DNA of 63,874 nucleotides, filler included, from Atractiella rhizophila (GCA_021432655.1; 9 parts of 8 records of this genome joined end to end with filler, not necessarily neighbours in it); one strand, 5' to 3'; shown: positions 6,374 to 63,333, counted from the first letter of the whole stretch. Notes: generated from the letters alone by a model not told the origin. Numbers and translations are program-made.

Positions 6374-6446
6374 GCCCGGCTAGCTCAGTCGGTAGAGCAT
6401 CAGACTCTTAATCTGAGTGTCGTGGGTTCGAGCCCCACGTTGGGCG
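6374..6446 (+). tRNA. tRNA-Lys(CTT), intronless
   Basis: GCCCGGCTAGCTCAGTCGGTAGAGC...CAGA-CTCTTAA-TCTG...GGTTCGAGCCCCACGTTGGGCG cloverleaf; T run at ~6450-6454 as Pol III terminator. Confidence 0.97.
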
Positions 6447-8774: not shown

Positions 8775-10144
8775 NNNNNNNNNNNNNNNNNNNNNNNNNN
8801 NNNNNNNNNNNNNNNNNNNNNNNNNNNNNNNNNNNNNNNNNNNNNNNNNNNNNNNNNNNNNNNNNNNNNNNNNNNNNNNNNNNNNNNNNNNNNNNNNNNN
8901 NNNNNNNNNNNNNNNNNNNNNNNNNNNNNNNNNNNNNNNNNNNNNNNNNNNNNNNNNNNNNNNNNNNNNNNNNNNNNNNNNNNNNNNNNNNNNNNNNNNN
9001 NNNNNNNNNNNNNNNNNNNNNNNNNNNNNNNNNNNNNNNNNNNNNNNNNNNNNNNNNNNNNNNNNNNNNNNNNNNNNNNNNNNNNNNNNNNNNNNNNNNN
9101 NNNNNNNNNNNNNNNNNNNNNNNNNNNNNNNNNNNNNNNNNNNNNNNNNNNNNNNNNNNNNNNNNNNNNNNNNNNNNNNNNNNNNNNNNNNNNNNNNNNN
9201 NNNNNNNNNNNNNNNNNNNNNNNNNNNNNNNNNNNNNNNNNNNNNNNNNNNNNNNNNNNNNNNNNNNNNNNNNNNNNNNNNNNNNNNNNNNNNNNNNNNN
9301 NNNNNNNNNNNNNNNNNNNNNNNNNNNNNNNNNNNNNNNNNNNNNNNNNNNNNNNNNNNNNNNNNNNNNNNNNNNNNNNNNNNNNNNNNNNNNNNNNNNN
9401 NNNNNNNNNNNNNNNNNNNNNNNNNNNNNNNNNNNNNNNNNNNNNNNNNNNNNNNNNNNNNNNNNNNNNNNNNNNNNNNNNNNNNNNNNNNNNNNNNNNN
9501 NNNNNNNNNNNNNNNNNNNNNNNNNNNNNNNNNNNNNNNNNNNNNNNNNNNNNNNNNNNNNNNNNNNNNNNNNNNNNNNNNNNNNNNNNNNNNNNNNAAC
9601 TACTTTGTGGCCAATTGGAGGACAGTGTTGTCTTGTCTTGTGGATGTCAGAGAATGAACTAAGAGTTGGTTGCCTGACTAAAGTTCCGGTTGTGCTCTTC
9701 CACTCTTTTGCCTGCTTGGCCCCTCTTCCCTGTCCCTGCTTTCCGTCATTCGAAGTCCTCAGTTTGTTTTGCCCAAAAATTGCCTGTGAGCGCAGCTGCT
9801 ATTACGATTAACTCACTAGTAGTAGTATTAATCCGTATCCTTGAATTTTGATGATAGATAGAGATACACTGCTATGGCAGCTATGCCCAGTAGCTGTGTC
9901 TTTCCATCTTGATAATTTTATCCTCCCAAGCGAATCAATCCCTGAAAGAGCGGCCCAGGCTCGCTATCACGAGAACGGGTTGCTAAGTGTCAACGCATTG
10001 GGTTACCGTGCTCTACATCCAAAGAGAATCAGAGCTGCCTTGAGCTGCGTTTGATCAAAGGGAGCACAAAGTCCTCTCAGCACATGCTTAAGCGTTGCTC
10101 CATCGATTCGGTTAACACGCTGATTCTCGGTTTTGCAGAGCAAT

Positions 10145-11320: not shown

Positions 11321-11420
11321 NNNNNNNNNNNNNNNNNNNNNNNNNNNNNNNNNNNNNNNNNNNNTTAATTAATTAANNNNNNNNNNNNNNNNNNNNNNNN
11401 NNNNNNNNNNNNNNNNNNNN
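11321..11420. other. Artificial six-frame-stop linker (also 22693-22792, 34056-34155, 45397-45496, 56731-56830, 58661-58760, 60794-60893, 62734-62833)
   Basis: 44 N + TTAATTAATTAA + 44 N, repeated eight times. Confidence 0.97.
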
Positions 11421-12896
11421 GTCCACGCCGTTTTCTACCCATGCTTTCTTTCCTGCAAGACTTTAGCTCAGCTTCGCGTTACTTGAAAAACTTACGCTTC
11501 CACAAATGCTTTCTCAAACTGGTCCTTGACTCCCTTCATATCTAGCTCACTCCTAATTCCTGAACCTCTATCGTTGTGCGCAAGCCGCCTAATAATGCTG
11601 AAACGCGTTCGAGAGTGGTGTCGGCACCGCGAAGGTAGACTTCCAACAATGCCTGTAAGCGGGCTCATTCAGTCAAGTCAGGCTTGGAGAGGAATGAAAG
11701 TCCCAAATATCACATTGAAATTCCAAGCAGCATACTATTTAGCGAACGGAGGCAATTAGCTAGTCAGACAGAGATGTTCTTTATCCGTAAATGTAATTAC
11801 TGTGATTATGAGATTATTACGCGGAAAAATTGCATACTCAAGGACCTGCATGACTTTCACGTCTGGATATCGCGGAGCAGTTCCGTGGATCTATCGTTAA
11901 GATGGAATATGGTTTGGATTGAACAGCTTGACTCCGTCTGTTTTCCATGAGCGCGCACAATGCCTCGCATGTAGAGGTTCATTACCGTTCATTGACAGTA
12001 GTACGGTGGCCTCATTGGCCACTCGATAATTCCAGCTCGGATTTTTTTATGGCAGCTCAACATTTGACAATCAATCGCTACAGAGGCTGTCGAGTTTTCT
12101 GTGAGCGAATCGACGATAAAGAATCTAAAGACGATAAGCGGTCGCAAATTTGTCGCACCTTCGACAGAGAATATCGTCTCTTAGGAAGATGTCGGATCAT
12201 ACATTCAACTGCAAACTTTTATTGGGCATGGTTCAGTATGAAGCAAGACCTCCGATCTAACAATCGCATCTCGATCAACCTGCGACCAAGGCTTGATGCA
12301 GAAAAGCGCCAGAACTTCGAGCGTAAACTCAGTCCATAGGTTGGATATGCGGTTCTGATTCATTCACGAAAGCGAGAGTCAGCGAAGGAACTATGTCCGC
12401 GCTCGAAAGACGGCGTGAGTCGCTGAAAAGGCATGGGAAGCGGACATTCCCCTACTCGGCATTTGCCATCAGAGCCCGGCGAGGTGGATTTCCCTCGCCT
12501 CCTGCTAGTAGCGCTCTGACTAGTATTTCATTACCTTCATTCATCCTCATTTCATGCCAACTCAACACCAGTAAATTTCAATGAATGTGAGGACGGAGCT
12601 CACGTTATATGTACTTGAAATCCCGCCTCGTCGCACCACAACTTGATATCATTTTGAGCAAGCCATCGTTTGCAGCTTGGGTGCAAAAACAAACAGAACT
12701 AGTTGAGTTGAGTGCTTAAGTCGCCAAAGTAGCCTAATTGCCGTATCAATCTAATTTGAGAAATCGATCATTCAAACTTGTTTTTACTTTGAAGGATCTA
12801 GCTAGTCACCCAGAAGACTTGGACGACTGTCTTGATAGGGGATGATAGGAGGAGGAGGGAAACTACGAGGGGAGTTCTGGGCAAGGATAAGCAGAC

Positions 12897-13128
12897 TGTT
12901 GAAGCTGAGGTTCATCAGAGTGACAGAACGAAGAAAGATCAGCATTGCATGAACGTTGGTGAGGAGTCACCTACCTGAGGTTCATCAGAGTGACAGAACG
13001 AAGAAAAGATGAACCTCAGATAGCTGAAAAACAGACTAAACTACGGAGCGGGGAACTGACACCAGATGCGATAGCCAGCTCAAGAGGGCAGAAAGAAAGT
13101 AAAGGTTGAAAACGTAATAACTTCAACA
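12897..13128 (-). mobile_element. Solo LTR of a Ty1/copia family related to the element at 45.5-48.6 kb
   Basis: TGTTGAA...TTCAACA termini, 5-bp TSD CAGAC (12892-12896 and 13129-13133), 232 bp; shares CTGAGGTTCATC/GATGAACCTCAG and CCGCTC(C)CGTAGTTTA with LTR 48401-48637. Confidence 0.93.
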
Positions 13129-13656
13129 CAGACTAAATTCCAAGGCCATTGATTCAGATAGATTCGAAACAAGGTCGATATATCCAGATATATCCCTGGA
13201 CAGATCGAGATGGACGAAGCGAGACTTCTCGGGAGAAAGGTAAGATTGAGTCAGAGATTACCGCAAGACTACAGGATAGTCTTTCTCCAGTCGGAGGCAA
13301 CTCCCGCTTCTTCCCGTCTATCTGGAACAAATATAACATCTCTTCCTCTTTCGTCCTGCCCTTTGTCTGTGTTAAGAAGACCTTACCTTTATCCTGAGAA
13401 CGAGTGGCTGATAACCCTAACGCAATCCCAATGTTGGGATTTTCGACCGCTCGATTCAACTGGCAACATTCATGATTTTGGACAACTCAACGTTCCTCAA
13501 CCACGTTCAATATTACTGAATTGTGCCTATCAAGCGCACAAGTTCAGTCGGAGGTACATCACGCAAAGGGCCAGAGATTTCTCATCATAATTGCGCGCAA
13601 TTTGTGAGGGACAAGGTCGAAACAGAGCCACAAGGACGAAAATTGTTGACGTGAAT

Positions 13657-15240: not shown

Positions 15241-18140
15241 NNNNNNNNNNNNNNNNNNNNNNNNNNNNNNNNNNNNNNNNNNNNNNNNNNNNNNNNNNNN
15301 NNNNNNNNNNNNNNNNNNNNNNNNNNNNNNNNNNNNNNNNNNNNNNNNNNNNNNNNNNNNNNNNNNNNNNNNNNNNNNNNNNNNNNNNNNNNNNNNNNNN
15401 NNNNNNNNNNNNNNNNNNNNNNNNNNNNNNNNNNNNNNNNNNNNNNNNNNNNNNNNNNNNNNNNNNNNNNNNNNNNNNNNNNNNNNNNNNNNNNNNNNNN
15501 NNNNNNNNNNNNNNNNNNNNNNNNNNNNNNNNNNNNNNNNNNNNNNNNNNNNNNNNNNNNNNNNNNNNNNNNNNNNNNNNNNNNNNNNNNNNNNNNNNNN
15601 NNNNNNNNNNNNNNNNNNNNNNNNNNNNNNNNNNNNNNNNNNNNNNNNNNNNNNNNNNNNNNNNNNNNNNNNNNNNNNNNNNNNNNNNNNNNNNNNNNNN
15701 NNNNNNNNNNNNNNNNNNNNNNNNNNNNNNNNNNNNNNNNNNNNNNNNNNNNNNNNNNNNNNNNNNNNNNNNNNNNNNNNNNNNNNNNNNNNNNNNNNNN
15801 NNNNNNNNNNNNNNNNNNNNNNNNNNNNNNNNNNNNNNNNNNNNNNNNNNNNNNNNNNNNNNNNNNNTCGAATATCAATGGGGTCCAGTCGCTTTTACTT
15901 GACGTGCCAGTGGCTCTCCTCGACATTATTTCGTGCTCCAAATCAACTTCATCATGTAGGATGTTTATAAAGCATGCCATCCCGATGTCTTGCTTGTCCA
16001 TGCATATTCGCTTACCATATAGAGATTGAACAGAAATTCATCCATGTTTATGTACGCTATCAGCTTCATGGTCAACTGCTGGCTAGTAGTACACATCATG
16101 CACCATGCACGCTCGCCTTCAGGTTCAGCTTGAAGTTGCGATCCTCTGTTTTCTTCATCAGGGTTCCTTGACTGCTGTTGATCGATATCGCTGATCCACC
16201 CGAAGAGGACGATGCAGAGCAGCCACTGAGGTGCCCATGACTAACGAGAGACAGTTTTGTGCGCGGAATGGCGGGAACTCTCGTAGTTAGATTTCAGAAG
16301 GGACACGCCTCTTCCTGGAAGGTTTGGCGCTACTGCGTACGTCCCTCTGAACAGATTCAATCCGTCCTCGCTACAGCTACACTATCAAAACGCGGGATCC
16401 ATTCGCGGAAGCTCCCAATTCTACATGTCTCGATCAAGGACGTTAAGTCAGTTGCAGCTCACCGTCCCCGAAGAAGTGTCGGGCTCTATGTGCCGACAGT
16501 TACGTTGGCGCGAGTGATCTGGCAACGCGCGCCGCACTCAAAACGTTAGGGGAGCTGCTCGTCATCGTTTCAACTCATTACATTGCATACAGTAATTTGA
16601 CCGGGAAGTCTGACCTTGCTCCTGCTCGTGAGCTCGTGATAAACAAGCTGAAGATGTTGAATACTAGTACGCTGTTCTTGTTAGGGCAACGTGATGTACA
16701 GGTACACCAACTGTTCCTGATTTATCTTTCTTATGCACTTACTTACCTTAGCCGCGGCTTTCTTCCTGCAATCAGTTGACCAGGCTGGCGACGACCGCGC
16801 CAGTTCGCGTCTTCTTTCAGTTACGCCGTGCAAAGTTGCGAAGACCGCGTTATTCGAAAGTTGAAAAGATACCCTCGAGTCTTGCTTTGAGCATTCGTTC
16901 GTCCACACGCGGAGTGGCAGCATTGTGGGATTGGGATTGCAACATGACAGCTTGTAACCGCTTATGAGCTCGCTTTGAGGATGTGACCTCCTGACGAACA
17001 GAACAACGCAGGAGGACAGCTTGCCAGTGCATGTCACTTTGTGTACATTGTGGGACATCGATCAATTCAATGTGCAACCGCAAAGCGCAAAGTGTGCTCA
17101 CTTCTGTCTCTTCCAATGTTACTGTATTTACCCGCCGGTCCTAGATCGCACGACGCGTGTATCTTCGCCTTTTCATCTGTCAGCTGAACTCGTTGATTGT
17201 CGACACGCGCAACTCCCTTTCTCCGAAACGAGCTGAGACGAGTTGCTTTTCTGAAGCTATCACGGAGTCAGCTTGGCGGTAGCACGAGATTCTATGTAGC
17301 CTGTTGACACTTTTACCGTCCCCGTCCACAGACAATTAATCGATTGATCGATTACCAAGTACGGCGACCGGGAGAGCTAATGACAAACCTCTCGTTTCAC
17401 CAGCCATCAGATCACCAGAGGCTCATACCCGGACGTTCCACGAGCTCGTCCAAGAAAAGCACGAAAACAGTAGTGTGCTTCTCTCCAGGTCTCCGACGGG
17501 GATCTAAAGTGAGAGGATGATTAGAGGCGTTTGCCCTGGTATGCTAGCGGCGACCGTGAAGGCTGTTGTGTTGCTGTTCTAGCGCTGAGCGAGGTAGACG
17601 GCCGAAGAACATACAAAGTAGGGATCGCCTCATTGGGCGTCCATTTCGAGAGATTTCCCTGATTTCCATGGCAAACTCATGGAGATGCTACCGAGATCAG
17701 GAGTGTACGGGAGTACCGCTGGTAGTAGTCCTCCGAGTCCGATCCTCAATTCTCCTCGATTCGCCAGCTCGATTCGCTGAGTGTCGTATCCTCTCGAAGT
17801 ATGAGACAAAGTACATTCGTACAGAGTGCGATTGCTGAGGCAACTTTCAAGTTCCCAAGGTTGTGGATGCATGTGTCCACTGTTCTTTTCCATGACAAGG
17901 CTTGATTGGGATTTGTTCGTCAATGTACGAAACACAGCTGCCAATAGAAGTGAGTCACCTCCGCGCCTGGAGACGTTTTTACGCTTGGTGGCATGCAGCA
18001 CGACTCAAAGCCGCTGCTCCGACTGCATTCTTATCTCCCGAGCGATACACTTCGGCTTATTTCTCAATAGGTGCGTCTTAGAACTGGTGCCCGTTGCGCG
18101 AACGCTTCGCGGAGTTCGTTGCCTTGACTTGGCCCGTTCT

Positions 18141-18328: not shown

Positions 18329-18482
18329 NNNNNNNNNNNNNNNNNNNNNNNNNNNNNNNNNNNNNNNNNNNNNNNNNNNNNNNNNNNNNNNNNNNNNNNN
18401 NNNNNNNNNNNNNNNNNNNNNNNNNNNNNNNNNNNNNNNNNNNNNNNNNNNNNNNNNNNNNNNNNNNNNNNNNNNNNNNNNN

Positions 18483-22692: not shown

Positions 22693-22792
22693 NNNNNNNN
22701 NNNNNNNNNNNNNNNNNNNNNNNNNNNNNNNNNNNNTTAATTAATTAANNNNNNNNNNNNNNNNNNNNNNNNNNNNNNNNNNNNNNNNNNNN

Positions 22793-33713: not shown

Positions 33714-34155
33714 TGAGGCGCCTTGGTATTTTTTACATCGAGGTACTTGTGGCAAGAGAAACATTGTGGAATGGACAATAAGTTCCCAGGCGAGTGTACA
33801 AAACAACTTGTCAAGATGAATTTCACCAAGCTGCAGCATGTGCCTCGGATTAGGATCCTCTGCACCGTCACATAAACTCTAAACGTACACCCTTGAGAAT
33901 AGAGAACACTCGACCTCCCTTGGAAGAGCTCCTCCAACCTCCTTTTGATTCTTCTCCTTCCTCTTTTTCTTTAGGTTTCTCAGCCTCCATCAGCCAAGCT
34001 CAGGTCCAGTTTTTATACCTCTTCTTCATGTTCATATGCTAAAGGCGAAGAGAGANNNNNNNNNNNNNNNNNNNNNNNNNNNNNNNNNNNNNNNNNNNNT
34101 TAATTAATTAANNNNNNNNNNNNNNNNNNNNNNNNNNNNNNNNNNNNNNNNNNNN

Positions 34156-38144: not shown

Positions 38145-40335
38145 ATGTCGCGTCCCATCCCCCAAACCCCATCCAAGAAGCGTTCACGACGCGCAGAAGG
38201 AGAAAGAGAAGAAGAGATCCATATCACTCCTCAGAGACCGAAGAAACAGAGGGTGGGGAACTTCCAACTGCCTTCTCCTGCTCCTTCTTCCAGGACTCCG
38301 ACCTCGAGACCAGCAACAGCGGGTGTGATATCTTCGGAGGGGAAGGAAAAGAGTCAAAAGACGCGTGCGTTCCTCTTCTATTTCTGTTTTTTCACTTGGT
38401 GGTGGTGGTTATCGAGGTATGACTGCTGATACCGGGACAAACAGTTGGCCCATTCGCCTCCCTCCGAAAAGCACTCCACGCCGTTCCCTCTGTACTCCCT
38501 TCACGCGACTCGGAACGGGACACCATCACCCAATTTCTCCTCTCCCGCTTCCCTTCACTCTCGACTACCACCTCACTAGATGTCGTCAAAAGTGTCAATG
38601 CAGAAGGCGAGCCGTCCACTCCCCCCGCTACGCCGAAGAAGGCGCGGGCACGGAAGGAGATGAGGAATTTGCATCTGAGCGGGACGCCGGGAGTGGGCAA
38701 GACGGCTTTGGTGAAGGAGGTCGTCGACGATCTTTTCTCTGCTCCGGCGAGTCTGTCGCTGTCGGAAAAGCAGAGGGTGGATCTGGTTTGGGTCAATTGT
38801 TTGCAGGCGGGGGGAACGGAGGGAAAGATTGTCGCTGCTGTGTTGGATAAGGTGGGGTTGAAGAGCGCTTCTCAACTTGGACCGTACTTTCTGACACATC
38901 CCACGTACGCTTTTTTCTGTTCTCTCTCTCTATTTACATTTAGATAGCTAAATTATACTGTACGTGATACAGTCTATTGGTTTTGGACGAACTGGACTCG
39001 CTCCCCCCAATTCTAACCTCAGCTCTCTCCTCCTCCAGCTCACGCACATCCTTGATCTCAATCTCAAACTCCCTCCTACCCCTAACCCTCCCTCAAACCC
39101 TTCACCTCCCATTCGCCCCCTACCCTCCCACCTCACTCACGTCCATCCTCACAACCCTGCTCCGAGACGAAGAGGAAGGAAAAGGATTCGACGAAAATGC
39201 ACTCAAGCTCTTGGGAAGGAGAGTCGGCAAAGAGTCTGGAGACTTGAGGAGGGCTAGAGAGGTGGCGGCGAAGGCGATAGACGTGGCTGAGAAACGGATC
39301 GCTGCTCTTGAGAAAGTAGACGGAGTGGAGAGCGTGGAGGTGAAAGTGACGATCGCGGACGTCCAAACCGCCCTCTCCGCGTCTTCATCCTCCTCCTCCT
39401 CACCATCCATTGGAGTTGCGAAGAAAGGGCTGTTGGATGGATTGAACTTGCAAGGGAAAATCGTCCTCCTCTCCATCCTCCTTTCTTCTTCCAGCCAGAA
39501 TCAAGGAAAGGAACCATATGCGGTTTACAAGGTCTTGTTGAGGGGTGAAATGGACCTTCTCTCCCCCCTCTCTCGTGGCGAATATCAAGATGTGATCTCT
39601 TCGCTTGAAGGATTTGGTCTTTTGGTCTCTCATGATGACGTGTCTCCGAACTCGAAGTCGAGTTTAACGACTCCGTTGACTCCACGAAAGACGCCGCAGA
39701 GGAAGAAGACAAAGTCGCTCTTCGGCCGCTCCACCTCTTCCTCATCCATCTCCCCCTCTCGCTCCCCTTCAACCACTTCACTCCTTTCGCTCTCGACCGG
39801 GATAACAGGAGCGGAATGGGAGGTAAGAGAGAGGGAGAAGGTGGAAGTGGCGTTGAAGGAGGCGAAGGGAGAGGAGGGGGAGGTGGTTAGGAGGTGTTGG
39901 GGGGAGTGGAGAAAAAAAAAAAAAAAAAAAAAAATGGTCTCTTACGACGATCTGTCTCCGAATTCGAAGTCGAGTTTAACGACTCCGTTGACTCCAAGAA
40001 AGACGCCGCAGAGGAAGAAGACAAAGTCGCTCTTCGGCCGTTCCTCCTCTTCCTCATCCATCTCCCCCTCTCGCTCCCCCTCAACTACTTCACTCCTTTC
40101 GCTCTCGACCGGGATAACAGGAGCGGAGTGGGAGGTAAGAGAGAGGGAGAAGGTGGAAGTGGCCTTGAAGGAGGCGAAGGGAGAGGAGGGGGAGGTGGTT
40201 AGGAGGTGTTGGGGGGAGTGGAGGAGGACGGAGGAGAGGAAGGTGCTTAGAGATAGAGAGGAACGGAGAGGGGGAGAGGGAGGGGAAGAGAGGTGGGGAA
40301 GTAAGTGGAGAGGGGAGGAGGAAGAGGGGTTTTGA
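38145..40335 (+). CDS. CDC6: Cdc6/Cdc18 replication initiation AAA+ ATPase with duplicated C-terminal segment
   Basis: Walker A HLSGTPGVGKTALV, WVNC, Walker B VLDELDSL, LPFAPY, SGDLRRA, LNLQGKIVL; starts 286 bp from the divergent MDV1 start. Confidence 0.88.
39623..40223 (+). repeat. 289-bp direct duplication separated by A23
   Basis: 39623-39911 and 39935-40223 near-identical; A-run 39912-39934; period 312 bp keeps the frame. Confidence 0.95.
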
Positions 40336-42431: not shown

Positions 42432-44025
42432 TTCCAACATACGATTTGTACAAGCGTCAAATCTCAGCATTTCTCCGCGGTAGATCTGATCTATATCTGT
42501 TCTGCTCGAATATTTGCTGCTAAAAGCCAGGGCTCTCCGGTTTACACCTACCTCTGAGGATTGTCACGCTGTCACGCGGATCGTCAGTGCTAGAGGAACT
42601 GAACACTAAGTCCATTTGGAACCGCGAGACAATGCTTTCTGCTTCAAAAATTGACAATTTATCTCGTCTGGTCCATTTCTCATTTCGTTAACTTGCTATA
42701 CGTCTACACTCAGTAGCCATAGAATGGAAGATGTACACGTAGATGTTGCACAACCTATATCCATGTAATGTCTGCAATGTAACATTCAGCCTAACACTCG
42801 ATGATAACAACTTGTCTGACCAGAGTCGATTTTGGTCCATCTTCGGTGGAGGGGCCAGGACAGTAAAATCTCGGATCACTGAACAGAGGACATTAAAATC
42901 CTTCGTTCTGTTTCTCAGTCTTTTTCCCAAACCCGGAACCTAAATTGTAAGGCGTCGTTTTGTCGCTGCCTGTCTCAAGAAGTTTTTCTCATTTGTAAAT
43001 TGGTTTCGAAAGTCCTGACCGCCAGGGGCGATTCGATTGCTCAGCTCAAAGTCTGCTGAAATATTTACAGGCTGCCATTGTCCATATTCCATATCTCAAT
43101 TGGAAGCTTTAAGGTACTTTGGGAATGAAATCCTGCATACCTCGCTCTCCACAATGAAGACAGGATGATGTGGTTACGAAATGGGGATTTCTCACTCTGC
43201 TCTTCATCTGAGCCCACCAAATCATTTCAGCTCTCCCCAGCACTAGTAGAATGGGCATAGGTTCCATACGCACGCTGTGACGTTGTGATGGCTAGGGTCT
43301 CGATTTCCAGCTCACGGAGAATGTAGCGCCACTTACGATCGTGTGGTTGTGATAGACTTAAAGACAACACGTTTGACGCTCGATGGTCCTTTGTGGATGT
43401 AGGGGGCAGCAAACATCATCTTCTATCGGCGGTATAAGGTCCCTCTTTCTGCCATTATTCAACAAATTGGATGCTGACTTTTCGTGTCGGCATTAATTCT
43501 TGTCAAACTGAAAGAATTGCACCTTTCCCTACCTCACCCGTTTCATGGGGTGTGTCACAATTTTGCGAGGGTAGCTCTGCATTGAATACTGCCTGTCCTA
43601 AACTACGACACGACCATGAAATGATTAGCTAAGCCATGGAACCAAAGTCGGCATTAAAGCTGCACATTTCATCCTTTTCTACTCGGCCCCTAAATCGATC
43701 TTGTGCTGCTGACTGTTAACGACCGGGAGTCAGCATTGGCTGCGCTTGCCTGTAAGAATCCGTTGTCGGGATGTGAATACTCGAGTTAGTTGGTGTTTCA
43801 GACCTCATTCTACCGCTGTGTGTACTCTGAAGGAGGTCGATGGAACCAGCATGATCCTGAGCATTAAGCCTTCGCCGCGACGGGCCCTTTATGAAAGATG
43901 TCCAGCGATGAACAATTTGCACAGAAACTTTGTGGAACGAGGAGAATTGTCAGCCGTTCCAAGTCTATAAAAGCCCAGTGTGTTTGGAGGATGGGGTCTA
44001 AGTAACTCGAAAGAACCTATTAACT

Positions 44026-45396: not shown

Positions 45397-45496
45397 NNNN
45401 NNNNNNNNNNNNNNNNNNNNNNNNNNNNNNNNNNNNNNNNTTAATTAATTAANNNNNNNNNNNNNNNNNNNNNNNNNNNNNNNNNNNNNNNNNNNN

Positions 45497-48289
45497 AACC
45501 TCGCCAAATCGATGCTGTACCATGCAAGACTCCCATTAGCATTCTGGGCAGAAGCTCTCTACTTCGCTGGGCACGTACACAACCGAATACCCCACTCCTC
45601 TCTCCAAGGAAAAATCCCGCTCACAACTCTTGAAGGTACCCTCCCCTCAGTCGGATATCTGCGAACATTCGGATGTACAGCATGGGCGTTGATCCCAGAG
45701 GAGAGACGGAGGAAGTGGGAGGACAAGGCTGTTCGCTGCATCTACCTGGGTCCGGACATCATGTTCAAGTCGCATCGATGCTGGGATCCAGCGAAACGTC
45801 GACTGATTCGTGCACGTCACGTCATTTTCGCCGAAAGCTACTTTGAAGGACGCACTGGGTCGGATCGACTTGAAGACTACACGTTCTGGTCAGAACAAAA
45901 CATAGATGAGTTCCCCCAAGACTTACCCTCCGATCCCAGTCTTCCCGATTCAGGAGTACGACGAGCTCCTCCTATTCCCGATTCTTTGGAAACTATCGCT
46001 CCAACACCATCTATTCTCAATCAAACCGCGAAGGGAACCAATGTCGTGGGGGATAACTTGAGTACGGGCAGTTGCGAGGGCGCTACACACGATGGGGTGG
46101 ACGTAAGACCCGCTGTTCAGGAAAGTGACCCTTTTCTCCATCAGCAACTCTTTCCTGACAGAACAACGGGACGCACCGAAAGCGAAGGAGGCAATGTCAG
46201 CCCCCCATCACCCTCTCTTCCCACCGTCGCATCCAAACCCCAGACACAGACTCCTCCTCAACCTCGTCGTTCCACACGAGTAAGAGTTCCAAATAAACAC
46301 ATTTTCGGCGGCGAGTACGTTGTCGATTCGAAATACAAAGACATCTTGCGCCTTGCTACCACTCCGTGCGAAACAAAAGGAAGCGTAACTGCTTCCAAAG
46401 TATCAAAATCGGGCAGTTGCAGTGGGGCCAAGCACATAGTGGTGGACGTAAGACCCGCGCAACAGGAGAGTGCCTTTCACTCCGTTGAAACCCTTGAACC
46501 TAACATCAGCACTCCTACGGCCGTTCAAGTCGAAGAACTCACAGAGAAGGATGTGCGTGAAGCCATCCGTCACCACGGTACCCATAACCTTCCTTCCTCA
46601 CGTCTCTCCGATACCGTTGATTACATGTTCTCCACCCGAGCCCTGCAAGACCAGGGATGGTCCTTGCGCGAGCCAAGGAGTCTGAAGGAAGCGTTGAGAA
46701 GTGAAGAAAGGGAGGAATGGTTGGAGGAATGTCGAAAGGAGTGGGAGAAACAGTTTTTGAATAAAACAATAGAAGGAGAACCTATTGATCTCCCAGAAGG
46801 CGAGACTGCAACACCGCTGATGTGGGCATTTCGACACAAATACGACATCAACGGCAAGCTGCAAAGCTTGAAAGCCCGTATCTGCGTCAGAGGAGATCTT
46901 CAAGCTCCGACAGGCAACCCAACTTTCGCGCCTGTCAGTAGTGGCGAAACTATTCGTGGAGTCATCGCTCTGGCAGCACGCGAGGATCTTGCAATCTATC
47001 AAGCTGATTACGAGACTGCTTTCCTCAACTCCCCCATTGACACCTCGAAAACTCGAATCTACATTCGCCAGCCCCCGGGCCTAGAAAAACCAGGAACGGA
47101 AGGAAAGGTCTACCTCCTCAAAAAGGGGTTGTACGGGCTGCTGGAAGCTGCACGCCTGTGGTTCGACACGTTAAAAAACGACCTCACTGCAAAGGGCTGG
47201 ACACCACTCTGGTCTGATTCCTGTGTCTTCACCAAGAAGCAAGGGGGGAAGCTTTATATTCTCATTGTCTATGTCGATGACACTCTCCTTCTTGGTAAAG
47301 ATCGAATAACCGTCCAAGCCCTCCAAAAAGAGCTTGGGACTTCGTTTGCCTTGCGCATCCTAGGAGAGATGGGGAAGTTCCTAGGGATGGAAGTAAAGCG
47401 AAATTGGGAGAAACGCACGATAAGCTTGACCCAAAGAGTCTACACCGCGACTATCTTGGAAAAGTTCGGTTTCACAAACAGCTATGCCAGCGTACCGGCA
47501 AACCCCAAAATCAAACTCGAGCCTTTCAACGGCACATGGACTCAGGAGGAACTTGAAAACAGACCTGAGTGGTCCTTCCTCGAAGCAACTGGATGCCTGA
47601 ACTGGCTCTCAATCTGCACAAGACCTGATATCACTTATGCCCTTTCAAATGTCCAACGCTTCGCAGCCAATCCAGGGCCAGAACATTTCAAGGCCGTAAA
47701 ACAAATCTTGCGTTATCTCAGCGCCACTTCGAACAAAGGCCTTCTCTTCAACGGAAACGATCGTCGCCCCCTGCACGCATACGCTGATGCCTCTTTCGCC
47801 TCTCTCCTACCTTCTCTCAAGTCCCAAGAAGGCCGCCTCACCATGCTTTGCGGCGCACCAATCACCTTCAAGTCAAAACCTCAAACAGTAGTCGCATTGT
47901 CTTCCGGAGAAGCAGAGTATGGGGCCGCTGCCAAAGCAACTGCTGACCTGCTCTGGACAAGAGGCCTCTACTCAGAATTGGACGCGCTTCGAAGCGTTCA
48001 CAACGTCCTTGATGGAGAAGACATCCCACCAACCACTGTCTATGAAGACAACCAAGCCGCGATAAAGATCTCAACGAATGGAGTGCACCATGCACAAAGC
48101 AAGCCTTTCTTGCTTCGTTATCACATGGTACGAGACAACGTTCAGAAAGGGAACGTAATCCTACGGTATATTCCAACACGGCATCAAATAGCCGACGTCC
48201 TGACAAAACCGTTATCGAAGGACGCTTTCCATCAATGCATCCACGCTATGGGTGTACGAGACGTAGGAGAACGGATACAATTTTCATAG
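45497..48289 (+). mobile_element. Ty1/copia pol (integrase C-terminus, RT, RNase H), uninterrupted ORF, 5' cut by linker
   Basis: FWAEAL, LRTFGCTAW, KARICVRGDLQ, QADYETAFLN, LKKGLYGL, VYVDD, TRPDITYA, YADASFA, SSGEAEY, EDNQAAI, QIADVLTKPL in IN-RT-RH order. Confidence 0.98.
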
Positions 48290-48400: not shown

Positions 48401-48637
48401 TGTTGAACTGTCGTTGTTACTCTCGCTGATCTGCTTTCACTTTACGCCTCTTTCCGCATTTCGTATTGTTGTTCCGTCCGCTCCCGTAGTTTACTTCGCA
48501 TTCTCACCTTACCTGAGGTTCATCTTTTGTCACCATCATTTCTGATGAACCTCAGGTAAGCCCTCCTGTCTCATATAGTCATGTAATATTCATTGATCTT
48601 TTGTCACCATCATTTCTGATGAACCTCAGGTTCAACA
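48401..48637 (+). repeat. 3' LTR of the copia element (237 bp)
   Basis: TGTTGAA...TTCAACA termini directly after purine tract GTAGTGGGAG (PPT, 48391-48400). Confidence 0.93.
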
Positions 48638-56730: not shown

Positions 56731-56830
56731 NNNNNNNNNNNNNNNNNNNNNNNNNNNNNNNNNNNNNNNNNNNNTTAATTAATTAANNNNNNNNNNNNNN
56801 NNNNNNNNNNNNNNNNNNNNNNNNNNNNNN

Positions 56831-58660: not shown

Positions 58661-58828
58661 NNNNNNNNNNNNNNNNNNNNNNNNNNNNNNNNNNNNNNNN
58701 NNNNTTAATTAATTAANNNNNNNNNNNNNNNNNNNNNNNNNNNNNNNNNNNNNNNNNNNNAGGAGAGTAGAGCGAACGAGAGTGGAAGAGAGTTGCGTCT
58801 GCGCTTTTAAAGACCTTTGAACACAGGT

Positions 58829-60793: not shown

Positions 60794-60893
60794 NNNNNNN
60801 NNNNNNNNNNNNNNNNNNNNNNNNNNNNNNNNNNNNNTTAATTAATTAANNNNNNNNNNNNNNNNNNNNNNNNNNNNNNNNNNNNNNNNNNNN

Positions 60894-61354: not shown

Positions 61355-63333
61355 AGGTTTCCTTTGTTGATGATCGAAAGCAGGGATACAGATGTTGCGA
61401 TTGTGAAAAGTTGGCCCTTGGGAGTTTGATCTACGAGAGATTATGAATCTACAGGTTGTGATACCCGACACCCAACGCATAGACACCTCGAGGTCAGGCT
61501 TCTATTATTTTTCAATCTGAATTGAATGATCCAAAGCTTTCATGCTTTTAAATAGAGCAAAGAAATAAAGGGCTGCCAGTACAGCCCGTATCCCGCGCTA
61601 TTTCCGGTTTTAGGTGAATTACTGGTCAGAGAATCAGGGAGATTGGCTGATACTGTAACTCTGGTGATTCATGCTCTTGTTGCGGATATTCCGGTAGTCT
61701 CAATACTACACATCGGCCAACACATTGCGTCAACGCATGAGACTCACCGTTATGTAGCAAGCGGGAGGCATTGATTATTACTCAAGGATCTATGGTGAAG
61801 TTAGTCGATCCTTCCGTCTACAACTGTTGGGTAAGTAGTTTTTTGAAACGTAAGAGCAAATATGGCAATGAGGCATTATTCAAATGGATCAAGACACTTG
61901 ATAGCTACTGGCCACGACAAGGCGGTTGCAAAATATGTGGTTTCCCGTGGTTGAAGAAAGTTGTCTGTGGTGACACGATGTCCTGTCTCAGGGCGTACAA
62001 TCACGTTCTCAACATTGAATGTAAAAATATTAAAAATCGGTTCTTTCTAATCCCTCCACATTGACATTTGAACTCGCATTTGAACATTTGAACCTCTGTC
62101 AAAAGTCATGTTAGACACTTTTTCGGGCTCGTTTAGCTACTTGTTGGACACTTGTATACGCTCCAAAGACAGTCAACCAAAACATAGAAACTTGTGCAAA
62201 ATATGACTGCAGACATTGCTTAGATAACGACGTTAACTAGCATTCTGCAGGTTCAGAACTCAACACTAAGCAGTAATTGTTTGGCAACTGAAATGCCACC
62301 TGATCGTGGCTGAGACTCTGACAAGCCTAATTAAGGCAGAATCGCCCCGTTGAAGTAAAATTACATGATAACAACATTATTTGTTCGTCATTTCTGTGTA
62401 GGTGAAACTTCAATTCTCTCAAGCCCAGACATAATATTGGTTCAGCTCCCCCTCTCCCTTAGTCAAAATTCTTGCCTTGCCACCTTTTGGTATAGATTTA
62501 ATCGTTCCATCAAGACATACAAGTCTATCTTTTTCTTCCTCCGAGTTACCACTCTAGGAATACCCTCATAAACCCTTTCGAATACTTCCGCCATTTGTAC
62601 AGCTATAGTGAGATGGGCTCCTCCCCTGCTCCCAACACCTCATAAAGTCCTGCCTTCCGACCCTTACCTATGGGCACGCAAGTGAGAGACTCCTCAGGAC
62701 ATAAAGTAACTACTAGAACACTTATCCTAGGATNNNNNNNNNNNNNNNNNNNNNNNNNNNNNNNNNNNNNNNNNNNNTTAATTAATTAANNNNNNNNNNN
62801 NNNNNNNNNNNNNNNNNNNNNNNNNNNNNNNNNCCTGATCGAAACTGCATTTCCTAAGCTGACCGTCAGCTATGACCAGGTCGACCTGGGGACTCTGCTT
62901 ACCTAGCCCGGTAGGTAGCGTAGAGGGATACGACTCCATGGACGCAAAGCGCCAGCAGTGGTGTTGTGAGCGAACGTCCCGGACGCAGCACGTACAACTG
63001 GTGTAATCCTTGCATTAAACTCGATCCAGGCTCTTCCCTAATTTGACAAGTTAGTGTGGAAAATGAATTTTCCGAAGCGGGAAATGCCGACCGGCAAACT
63101 GTGACAGATCTAACTTTTGCTGAAGTGGTGTGCCTTCTCAACTCCTAGAATGCAGATGTCGACCTCCCACCCTGTCTTAGCTCAACCCGCCTCCCACGGT
63201 GGAGGCCGTTCTCGCGGTCCTTCTTCGCTATCCTCTGAGCTCCCAATGAGGGCGATGACCTTGCCTCAAACAGCTCAGGTCCGCTCAACTTCTGCATTCC
63301 TTTGGACACTGGACTGATCCTCAGCCATGATAG

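Follow-up and report, generated by a model that had tools for sequence, protein, structure and literature searches.

Why should an LTR end in a stable hairpin, a repeat of one half of it and what looks like a complete set of intron signals? The question is raised by a 232-bp LTR, LTR-A, in a 63,874-nt stretch of Atractiella rhizophila DNA (GCA_021432655.1), which in its whole length is referred to here as the window. A first-pass annotation had described the arrangement in this LTR and in a diverged relative, and had read it as a selected RNA structure.

The window is a chain of contigs joined at eight places by N44-TTAATTAATTAA-N44 linkers (six-frame stop linkers). These linkers, together with further N gaps, explain the apparent low-GC bins and six-frame "ORFs" at these places. 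Long ORFs are rare in the window, and its ORF fragments match the RTA1, glycosyl hydrolase 71, eukaryotic aspartyl protease, syntaxin, WD40, frataxin and mitochondrial carrier families. Such content points to an intron-rich fungus, probably a basidiomycete. A 289-nt tandem unit (39623-40223, spacing 312, 96% identity) lies inside a long ORF without clear family (38968-40332). An Rfam search returned only a tRNA, Lys (CTT) at 6374-6446, which is the sole tRNA gene of the window; a window scan allowing up to 2 mismatches did not find it complementary to the LTR arms.

A repeated LTR family and its copia relative

LTR-A is bounded by TGTTGAAG and CTTCAACA, which conform to the general LTR terminal consensus TGTTRNR...YNYAACA as given in the available part of PMC3601003, and is flanked on both sides by a perfect 5-bp target duplication, GTCTG. 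Within the window it is the only TGTTGA..TCAACA pair with a target duplication. The coordinates of all features are collected in Table 1.

Contigs of three public sequencing runs (X1, X2 and X3, of which X1 and X2 represent the same sample) were aligned to positions 12500-13500, giving 140 aligned contigs in X1, 104 in X2 and 24 in X3. The contigs are 31-mer assemblies, and their alignment, of short contigs at 80% likeness, is biased to conserved parts. One contig each in X1 and X2 joined 12891 to 13129, skipping 237 bases (232 + 5), with 6 letters at the joint fitting both sides, as an empty site. The filled site was represented as well, the 13128/13129 junction being crossed without mismatch by contig record 6 and the 12897/12896 junction by X3 record 18. 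As the filled and the empty site both occur in DNA contigs of one sample, the insertion of LTR-A is polymorphic in the sequenced material, and the presence of the empty site there argues that the insertion is young.

Summed contig depth ranged from 12,611 to 128,966 in the LTR-A bins versus about 323-340 in the X1 flanks, which is not a copy number. A depth about two orders of magnitude above the flanks, together with the many contigs, marks LTR-A as part of a repeated family, and we claim no more from it. The run contigs break at the LTR-A borders, which fits a solo LTR and a full element collapsed by assembly alike. These data are best read as showing LTR-A to be a recent insertion from a multi-copy Ty1/copia LTR family of an intron-rich fungus; LTR-A itself comes without an internal part, and its assignment to Ty1/copia would follow solely from the module it has in common with LTR-B.

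LTR-B, with termini TGTTGAAC...GTTCAACA, is the second LTR that the first-pass annotation had recognized as carrying a homologous module, and it indeed repeats the layout of LTR-A. It is preceded by a 2.8-kb pol frame, ending 111 nt before it, with the domain order SH3_retrovirus, RVT_2 (E 1.3e-43) and RNase H motifs, and by a purine-rich GTAGTGGGAG between this frame and the LTR. The copia pol and GTAGTGGGAG identify LTR-B as the 3' LTR of a Ty1/copia element whose 5' part was lost at the contig end. The RT motif of this element is YVDD; its best pol relatives in a protein search of a very large protein collection were 33-36% identical, and a pol-based scan of viral contigs found no relative. 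The stretch of this pol ORF that links the integrase end to RT contains a 63-nt segment twice (46065-46127 and 46410-46472, 75% identity, 345 nt apart), encoding a repeated peptide, ...GSCEGATHDGVDVRPAVQES... and ...GSCSGAKHIVVDVRPAQQES....

At position 8 of the terminal inverted repeat the two ends have changed in step, with G...C in LTR-A and C...G in LTR-B; a third terminus, TTTCAACA, was found at a loose contig end in X3. The A2 arm of LTR-B forms, with the terminus (48614-48634), a 15-nt palindrome, TGAACCTCAGGTTCA.

Table 1. Coordinates of LTR-A, LTR-B, their parts and surrounding features, counted from the first letter of the window
Feature	Position	Strand	Remarks
LTR-A	12897..13128	minus	232 bp, TGTTGAAG...CTTCAACA; sequence read, target-site duplication and empty-site contig
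5' terminal inverted repeat of LTR-A, TGTTGAAG	13121-13128	minus	pairs in sequence with CTTCAACA
3' terminal inverted repeat of LTR-A, CTTCAACA	12897..12904	minus	8 bp
Target-site duplication, upstream copy GTCTG	13129..13133	minus	5 bp; sequence read and empty-site joint
Target-site duplication, downstream copy GTCTG	12892..12896	minus	5 bp; sequence read and empty-site joint
Conserved box CCGCTCCGTAGTTTA	13037..13051	minus	~17 nt upstream of stem; common with LTR-B
5' arm of LTR-A hairpin	13008..13023	minus	12-nt core CTGAGGTTCATC = 13008-13019; 4-nt extension pairs with donor
Loop of LTR-A hairpin	12987..13007	minus	21 nt; family-specific part of A1
3' arm of LTR-A hairpin	12971..12986	minus	GATGAACCTCAG + GTAG; covers donor-like CAG/GTAG and short ORF ATG AAC CTC AGG TAG
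A1, first copy of loop and 3' arm in LTR-A	12975-13010	minus	coordinates of first-pass annotation, sequence read
A2, second copy of loop and 3' arm in LTR-A	12905..12939	minus	sequence read and repeat search
Candidate intron of LTR-A, spacer + A2	12905..12974	minus	70 nt, GTAGGT...CTGAT...CAG; signal scan
59-nt GT..AG joint in flank	12751..12809	minus	bridged by contig starting inside A2 (X3 record 18)
Second GT..AG joint in flank	12546-12603	minus	58 nt; contig joint
Ty1/copia pol ORF	45497..48289	plus	integrase C-terminal SH3, RVT_2, RNase H; cut by contig end
LTR-B	48401..48637	plus	237 bp; 3' LTR of copia element, same module as LTR-A
LTR-B hairpin stem	48508-48524 with 48544-48560	plus	17 bp, perfect
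LTR-B direct repeats	48519-48557 and 48593-48631	plus	39 nt, 38/39 identical, spacing 74
LTR-B candidate intron	48556-48629	plus	74 nt
Linkers	11321-11420, 22693-22792, 34056-34155, 45397-45496, 56731-56830, 58661-58760, 60794-60893, 62734-62833		
Further N gaps	8775-9597, 15241-15867, 18329-18482		

A hairpin, a copy of its half, and their conservation

The module takes up the last ~125 bases of LTR-A (123 nt in the variant count below). In both LTRs it consists of a 12-nt 5' arm, an 18-21-nt loop (21 nt in LTR-A, 19 nt in LTR-B), a 3' arm that runs into GTA(G/A)G, a spacer of ~37 nt (LTR-A) or ~43 nt (LTR-B), a copy of the loop and 3' arm, and an 8-nt terminus, (C/G)TTCAACA. The two copies, A1 and A2, had been annotated in LTR-A as identical except for one base in a homopolymer, and the sequence bears this out: a 32-nt exact direct repeat (12905-12936 and 12975-13006, spacing 70) grows into the full A1 and A2 once a single additional T in the A1 homopolymer is allowed for. 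The annotated 16-bp stem with one G:U was recovered both in the repeat search, where 12967-12986 and 13008-13027 are complementary at 90% of 20 nt, and in RNA folding, which added three outer pairs (-29.6 kcal/mol, z -6.06, 0/200 shuffles as good). The LTR-B module folded at -28.5 kcal/mol (z -8.34). The 12-mer of the arm occurs six times in the window versus 0.56 expected, all in LTR-A and LTR-B, three times per LTR (once inverted, twice direct), and is invariant in all six copies. Re-pairing the 5' arm to A2 instead of A1 costs 5.9 kcal/mol in LTR-A and 3.5 kcal/mol in LTR-B relative to the local hairpin.

Upstream of the stem, the box CCGCTC(C)CGTAGTTTA is conserved in both LTRs, as had been reported (48478-48493 in LTR-B), and its LTR-A version, CCGCTCCGTAGTTTA, is a possible core promoter. 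A box-like CGTAGTTTA at 43599-43607 was rejected as an LTR box, not being part of an LTR. In the flank, at 12859-12867 (minus strand), 30-38 nt downstream of LTR-A, CGTAGTTTC within CCCCTCGTAGTTTCCC resembles the conserved box and may be due to chance or be the trace of an older LTR.

Between LTR-A and LTR-B, the three arms are identical at 36/36 positions, compared to 13/21 in the loop, 26/43 in the spacer and 77/112 in U3 (gap-permissive alignment), supporting the view, from sequence comparison, that the arms are much more strongly constrained than the rest of the LTR. This mosaic of arm, loop and spacer identity is too fine to be the product of recombination. Among the aligned copies, 16 listed variant sites fall in 109 nt of U3 versus 4 in the 123 nt of the module (Fisher p = 0.002), and none in the arms, with the short-contig alignment being biased to conserved parts.

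These comparisons bear on the simplest alternative, namely that the module has no function, an old duplication beside a palindrome hitch-hiking in successful families and A1 and A2 being alike due to copy-number changes in reverse transcription. It agrees with there being only two full LTRs seen, with a covariation signal that is not significant (see below) and, possibly, with a loose end in X1 and X2, at which ...CCTCAGGT is followed at once by the terminus and then by unrelated sequence; this contig end may represent a one-copy LTR or a G-tailed A2 aligned on A1, both fitting equally. However, with some 65% identity per site, unconstrained arms would be very unlikely to agree at 36/36 positions, recombination does not give so fine an alternation of identical and diverged blocks, and the family is repeated and recently active. 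We thus consider a lack of function very unlikely.

The annotated claim of a selected structure with covariation stood in part. Donor position +4 is G in LTR-A and A in LTR-B, and its partner is C and T, respectively (alignment columns 6/58, CG vs UA), as reported. Yet this is the only compensatory pair (C:G in LTR-A, U:A in LTR-B): 14/17 stem pairs are invariant between the two LTRs, one further pair is U:G in LTR-A vs C:G in LTR-B, and one is broken in LTR-A. Moreover, 251/500 shuffles reached the observed value in a covariation control that is empty with two sequences. Selection on the module is therefore partly supported, the support being carried by sequence conservation, not covariation.

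All of these stem changes are located in the five outer pairs, which can be formed by A1 only, while the 12 core pairs, common to A2, are frozen. If the core has to fit two partners, a change in it would need three coordinated substitutions, and a frozen core is therefore a prediction of alternate pairing. It is equally predicted by sequence recognition by a factor. The 12-mer could also act as DNA, bound by a protein of the host or of the element (a transcription factor or integrase, for example), with the RNA fold as a by-product; its invariance in 6/6 copies and the lack of core covariation fit such recognition as well as they fit pairing, and the arm resembles the LTR termini (GGTTCA/TGAACC), a likeness that may also hint at the origin of the module. 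A binding site would not account for a stem that reaches 4-5 pairs beyond the 12-mer, with one compensatory change, nor for the identity of the loops within an LTR, and we assign this explanation a low probability.

The loop copies within one LTR differ by one homopolymer base (LTR-A) or are identical (LTR-B); the first-pass annotation was thus right in that the repeat core differs between families and matches within each LTR. Loops that match their own copy yet differ between LTRs require homogenisation or selection. The spacers of LTR-A and LTR-B have motifs in common (GTA.G, CTCCT, TCATG.AAT, TGATC), and most likely, therefore, the duplication predates the family split and the loops later changed together within each LTR. 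The concerted evolution claimed for the repeats is borne out to this extent, but not as a re-copying of A2 from A1 in every cycle, as the one-base difference between them is carried by most of the depth: the extra base was found in A2 in 12,649.5 of a depth of 63,806.4 in X1 and 7,736 of 30,400.2 in X2, part of which may stem from A1 contigs aligned on A2. We infer that homogenisation is occasional, by reverse-transcriptase switching between the repeats, together with selection against one-copy products.

A third form of the module was found in a contig of X1 and X2 that goes back 39 letters with 34 other letters between, i.e. an LTR-A type repeat with a different spacer. This 34-letter spacer begins with GTAAGC in sense, again directly after A1. 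A scan for the hairpin pattern with both arms exact gave 0 matches in viral contigs and 0 in metagenome contigs, and a scan for arm plus terminus gave 0 matches in viral contigs. Fourteen metagenome-contig loci with arm plus terminus were discarded as chance matches, 0/14 having a second arm, a 5' arm or an upstream TGTTGAA.

A candidate intron and a proposed two-state leader

The intron signal scan (GTRNGY, 45-100 nt, CTRAY, YAG) found exactly one candidate per LTR, on the sense strand only and at homologous places, of 70 nt in LTR-A and 74 nt in LTR-B. By chance, such candidates arose in 208/5000 and 154/5000 shuffles (3-4%), and in the window at 0.43 sites per kb per strand. The sequence CAG/GTAGGT...CAG at 12974-12905 reads as previously annotated. 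The donors are GTAGGT (LTR-A) and GTAAGC (LTR-B), CTGAT lies 10 nt before CAG, and this acceptor CAG is part of A2, with 8 nt left to the LTR end. All three spacer-bearing forms (LTR-A, LTR-B and the third form) retain the donor-like GTA(G/A)G behind A1. Both LTR-B repeat copies end in CAGGT, and AGGT is a detail of intron birth by segmental duplication. In the part of PMC3265369 available, such a direct repeat supplies the donor from its first and the acceptor from its second copy, and splicing restores the unduplicated sequence.

With 70 and 74 nt, the candidate introns are longer than three host introns seen, two of 59 and 58 nt at contig joints with GT..AG ends in the flank and one of 52 nt inferred by reading a carrier gene; host splice examples are GTGACT..TAG, GTGAGC..AG and GTATAT..TAG, and the GT donor, branch site and YAG acceptor of the candidates are of the host kind. 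In the basidiomycete yeast Cryptococcus, according to excerpts of PMC5851062, the mean intron length is 65 nt, expression depends on introns, and those in transposon transcripts are poorly spliced. Plant copia elements can have a conserved, partly spliced intron with a U1-type donor (PMC5580714, in part). An LTR-embedded intron is thus plausible, as a candidate drawn from sequence signals.

Two GT..AG joints in the X3 flank suggest that X3 is RNA-derived. X3 record 18, a contig of 173 nt that fits without mismatch, starts within A2 at 12926, crosses the LTR end as far as 12810 and is joined there to 12750-12695 across the 59-nt GT..AG stretch. If X3 is RNA-derived, the A2-terminus part of LTR-A is co-transcribed with the flank in a chimeric LTR-flank transcript. 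The first exons of this spliced flank are without a long ORF. About 240 bases upstream of LTR-A (13146-13383) are uncovered in X3, which we do not count as evidence for a start inside the LTR, and the similar X3 contig depths over U3 (614.1) and spacer (578.6) are not a measure of splicing efficiency. A scan for bacterial-type promoters and terminators gave nothing and is not relevant to a eukaryote.

An unspliced form is represented by X3 record 20 (87 nt), which continues from A1 through donor and spacer and enters A2 without a break. The 70-base skip is absent from the X1, X2 and X3 contigs; as its junction would lie inside a 32-nt exact repeat, and therefore cannot appear in 31-mer contigs, this absence carries no weight. 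In both LTRs the donor is buried in a stem of about -29 kcal/mol, and a donor locked in a very stable stem is expected to splice poorly, as known for hairpin-sequestered splice sites.

Our preferred reading, held tentatively and with somewhat less than even confidence, is that the module is a two-state leader RNA gating a weak LTR-embedded intron. The last ~125 nt of the LTR would be a transcribed leader (R-U5), presumably acting as RNA and starting near the 5' arm. The one 5' arm could pair with either of two identical arms, that of A1 next to it or, 70 nt downstream, that of A2. Its hairpin with A1 (16-17 bp, about -29 kcal/mol) would bury a consensus donor, CAG/GUAGGU in LTR-A and CAG/GUAAGC in LTR-B, while A2 would supply a CUGAU branch site and the CAG acceptor 8 nt before the LTR end. 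The hairpin would keep most molecules unspliced, as genomic RNA, and upon its opening one repeat unit could be spliced out; with A1 and A2 being the same, this would not alter the leader sequence that remains. Occasional reverse-transcriptase jumps, or the copying of spliced leaders, may maintain the likeness of the two repeats.

A bolder version, which we hold to be quite improbable, casts the 5' arm as an "anti-donor" at the U3/R border that makes one LTR behave differently at the two RNA ends. The 5' arm of LTR-B reads CUUACCUG, which we take to resemble the 5' end of U1 snRNA. Were transcription to start within or just after the arm, the 5' leader copy would lack it, and its donor would be open to U1, allowing splicing or suppressing a poly(A) signal in the spacer. 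The 3' copy, preceded by the arm, would fold, hide its donor and be polyadenylated.

The conserved donor has another possible meaning, as UAG/UAA at donor +2 to +4 also closes a 4-codon ORF from the arm AUG, and this stop would explain the same conservation without splicing. In a translational control of this kind, the A1-arm AUG would open the short ORF (AUG AAC CUC AGG UAG/UAA) within the stem, and the A2 AUG may start Gag. Both LTRs keep the AUG and an in-frame A1 stop (TAG in LTR-A, TAA in LTR-B), the A2 frame is open through the terminus in both, and Gag of Ty1 likewise starts within the 5' LTR. The identity of the loops and of the 5' arm is not explained in this way, and we strongly doubt that translational control is the main role of the module.

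Splicing, in turn, leaves the identity of the A1 and A2 loops, beyond the arm, unexplained. A homology-dependent step in replication would require precisely this identity through the loop. The module could thus be a replication element without splicing, in which the genomic RNA begins with the hairpin (R) and A2 belongs to U5; the cDNA made first, as the complement of A2, would perfectly match the hairpin's loop and 3' arm and could invade and open the hairpin or guide strand transfer, and reverse-transcriptase switching would keep A1 and A2 alike. Such an element would, however, not explain why GTA(G/A)G is kept after A1, and a leader is expected to lose its direct repeats through reverse-transcriptase jumps, not to profit from them. 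Canonical self-priming at A2 fails on anatomy and was rejected, as the arm lies 8 nt inside the LTR and is present both in a 3' LTR and in LTR-A, which itself borders on the target duplication. On the other hand, the hairpin is stable, the module lies between the conserved box and the LTR end, the site of R-U5 in other LTRs (PMC3601003, available part), and a fungal copia group with a conserved hairpin replacing the primer binding site is described in the accessible part of PMC5445492. We regard a pure replication role as somewhat unlikely, and rank it second to the two-state leader.

Significance and comparison with known systems

LTRs have opposite jobs at the two ends of one RNA, and they must yield both genomic RNA and mRNA. 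If the two-state reading is true, a hairpin-gated direct-repeat intron inside the LTR would be a compact way of doing both, and intron birth by duplication, retroelement replication and concerted evolution would meet in one case. The anti-donor, if true, would be a structural solution to the discrimination of 5' and 3' LTRs combined with the intron of a self-homogenising repeat. Loss of a repeat unit looks alike whether brought about by the spliceosome, a reverse-transcriptase jump or recombination, and RNA-seq junctions at such LTRs therefore need controls. A search of open-access papers turned up no account of a leader hairpin of which one half is duplicated and which carries an intron-like unit.

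Retroviral R-region hairpins, such as TAR and the poly(A) hairpin, are stable stem-loops at the start of the transcribed part of an LTR. The module resembles R-U5 hairpins in position, and in both the context of the stem-loop differs at the two RNA ends; we know of no R-region hairpin with a duplicated half or an embedded intron-like unit. In Tf1, the site complementary to the leader is the primer binding site just outside the LTR, and LTR-A, whose complementary A2 arm stops 8 nt short of its end, does not fit a Tf1-type self-primed element. Stem-loops do occur in long R regions (PMC3601003, in part), and the module has in common with Tf1-type self-priming that sequence on the 5' side of the leader can pair with sequence close to the LTR end (excerpts of PMC5445492 and PMC3601003).

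The GalEa Conserved Hairpin Site, too, belongs to a fungal copia group; it combines highly conserved complementary arms with a variable loop, recurs between families and is better conserved than the LTR (PMC5445492, available part). In that part, it is placed just after the 5' LTR, replacing the primer binding site, has 9-nt arms of which the first is palindromic, is reported only in Pezizomycotina and goes with an RT motif QTDD. By contrast, the hairpin studied here lies inside the LTR, is half duplicated, has an arm that is not palindromic and belongs with a YVDD motif; by its place, its arm and its RT motif it is not a GalEa Conserved Hairpin Site, as far as the excerpted criteria of PMC5445492 define one.

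A conserved canonical donor in a copia-type element is the feature in common with the Ty1/Copia intron of Arabidopsis EVD and its relatives (PMC5580714, excerpts). In the account given there, most EVD-type RNA remains unspliced, and premature termination, too, is suppressed by the binding of U1. Located around the protease region, the EVD-type intron gives rise to a short gag mRNA, whereas the candidate described here is inside the LTR, has splice sites that are the ends of a direct repeat and a donor in a hairpin, and is predicted from sequence.

The closest parallel to the repeat arrangement itself is intron birth by segmental duplication (PMC3265369, part available), in which copy 1 of a repeat likewise becomes the donor and copy 2 the acceptor. 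Compared to the duplication-born introns described there, the candidate intron of LTR-A and LTR-B is situated in the LTR of a mobile element, and its repeat copies have stayed near-identical while the families diverged.
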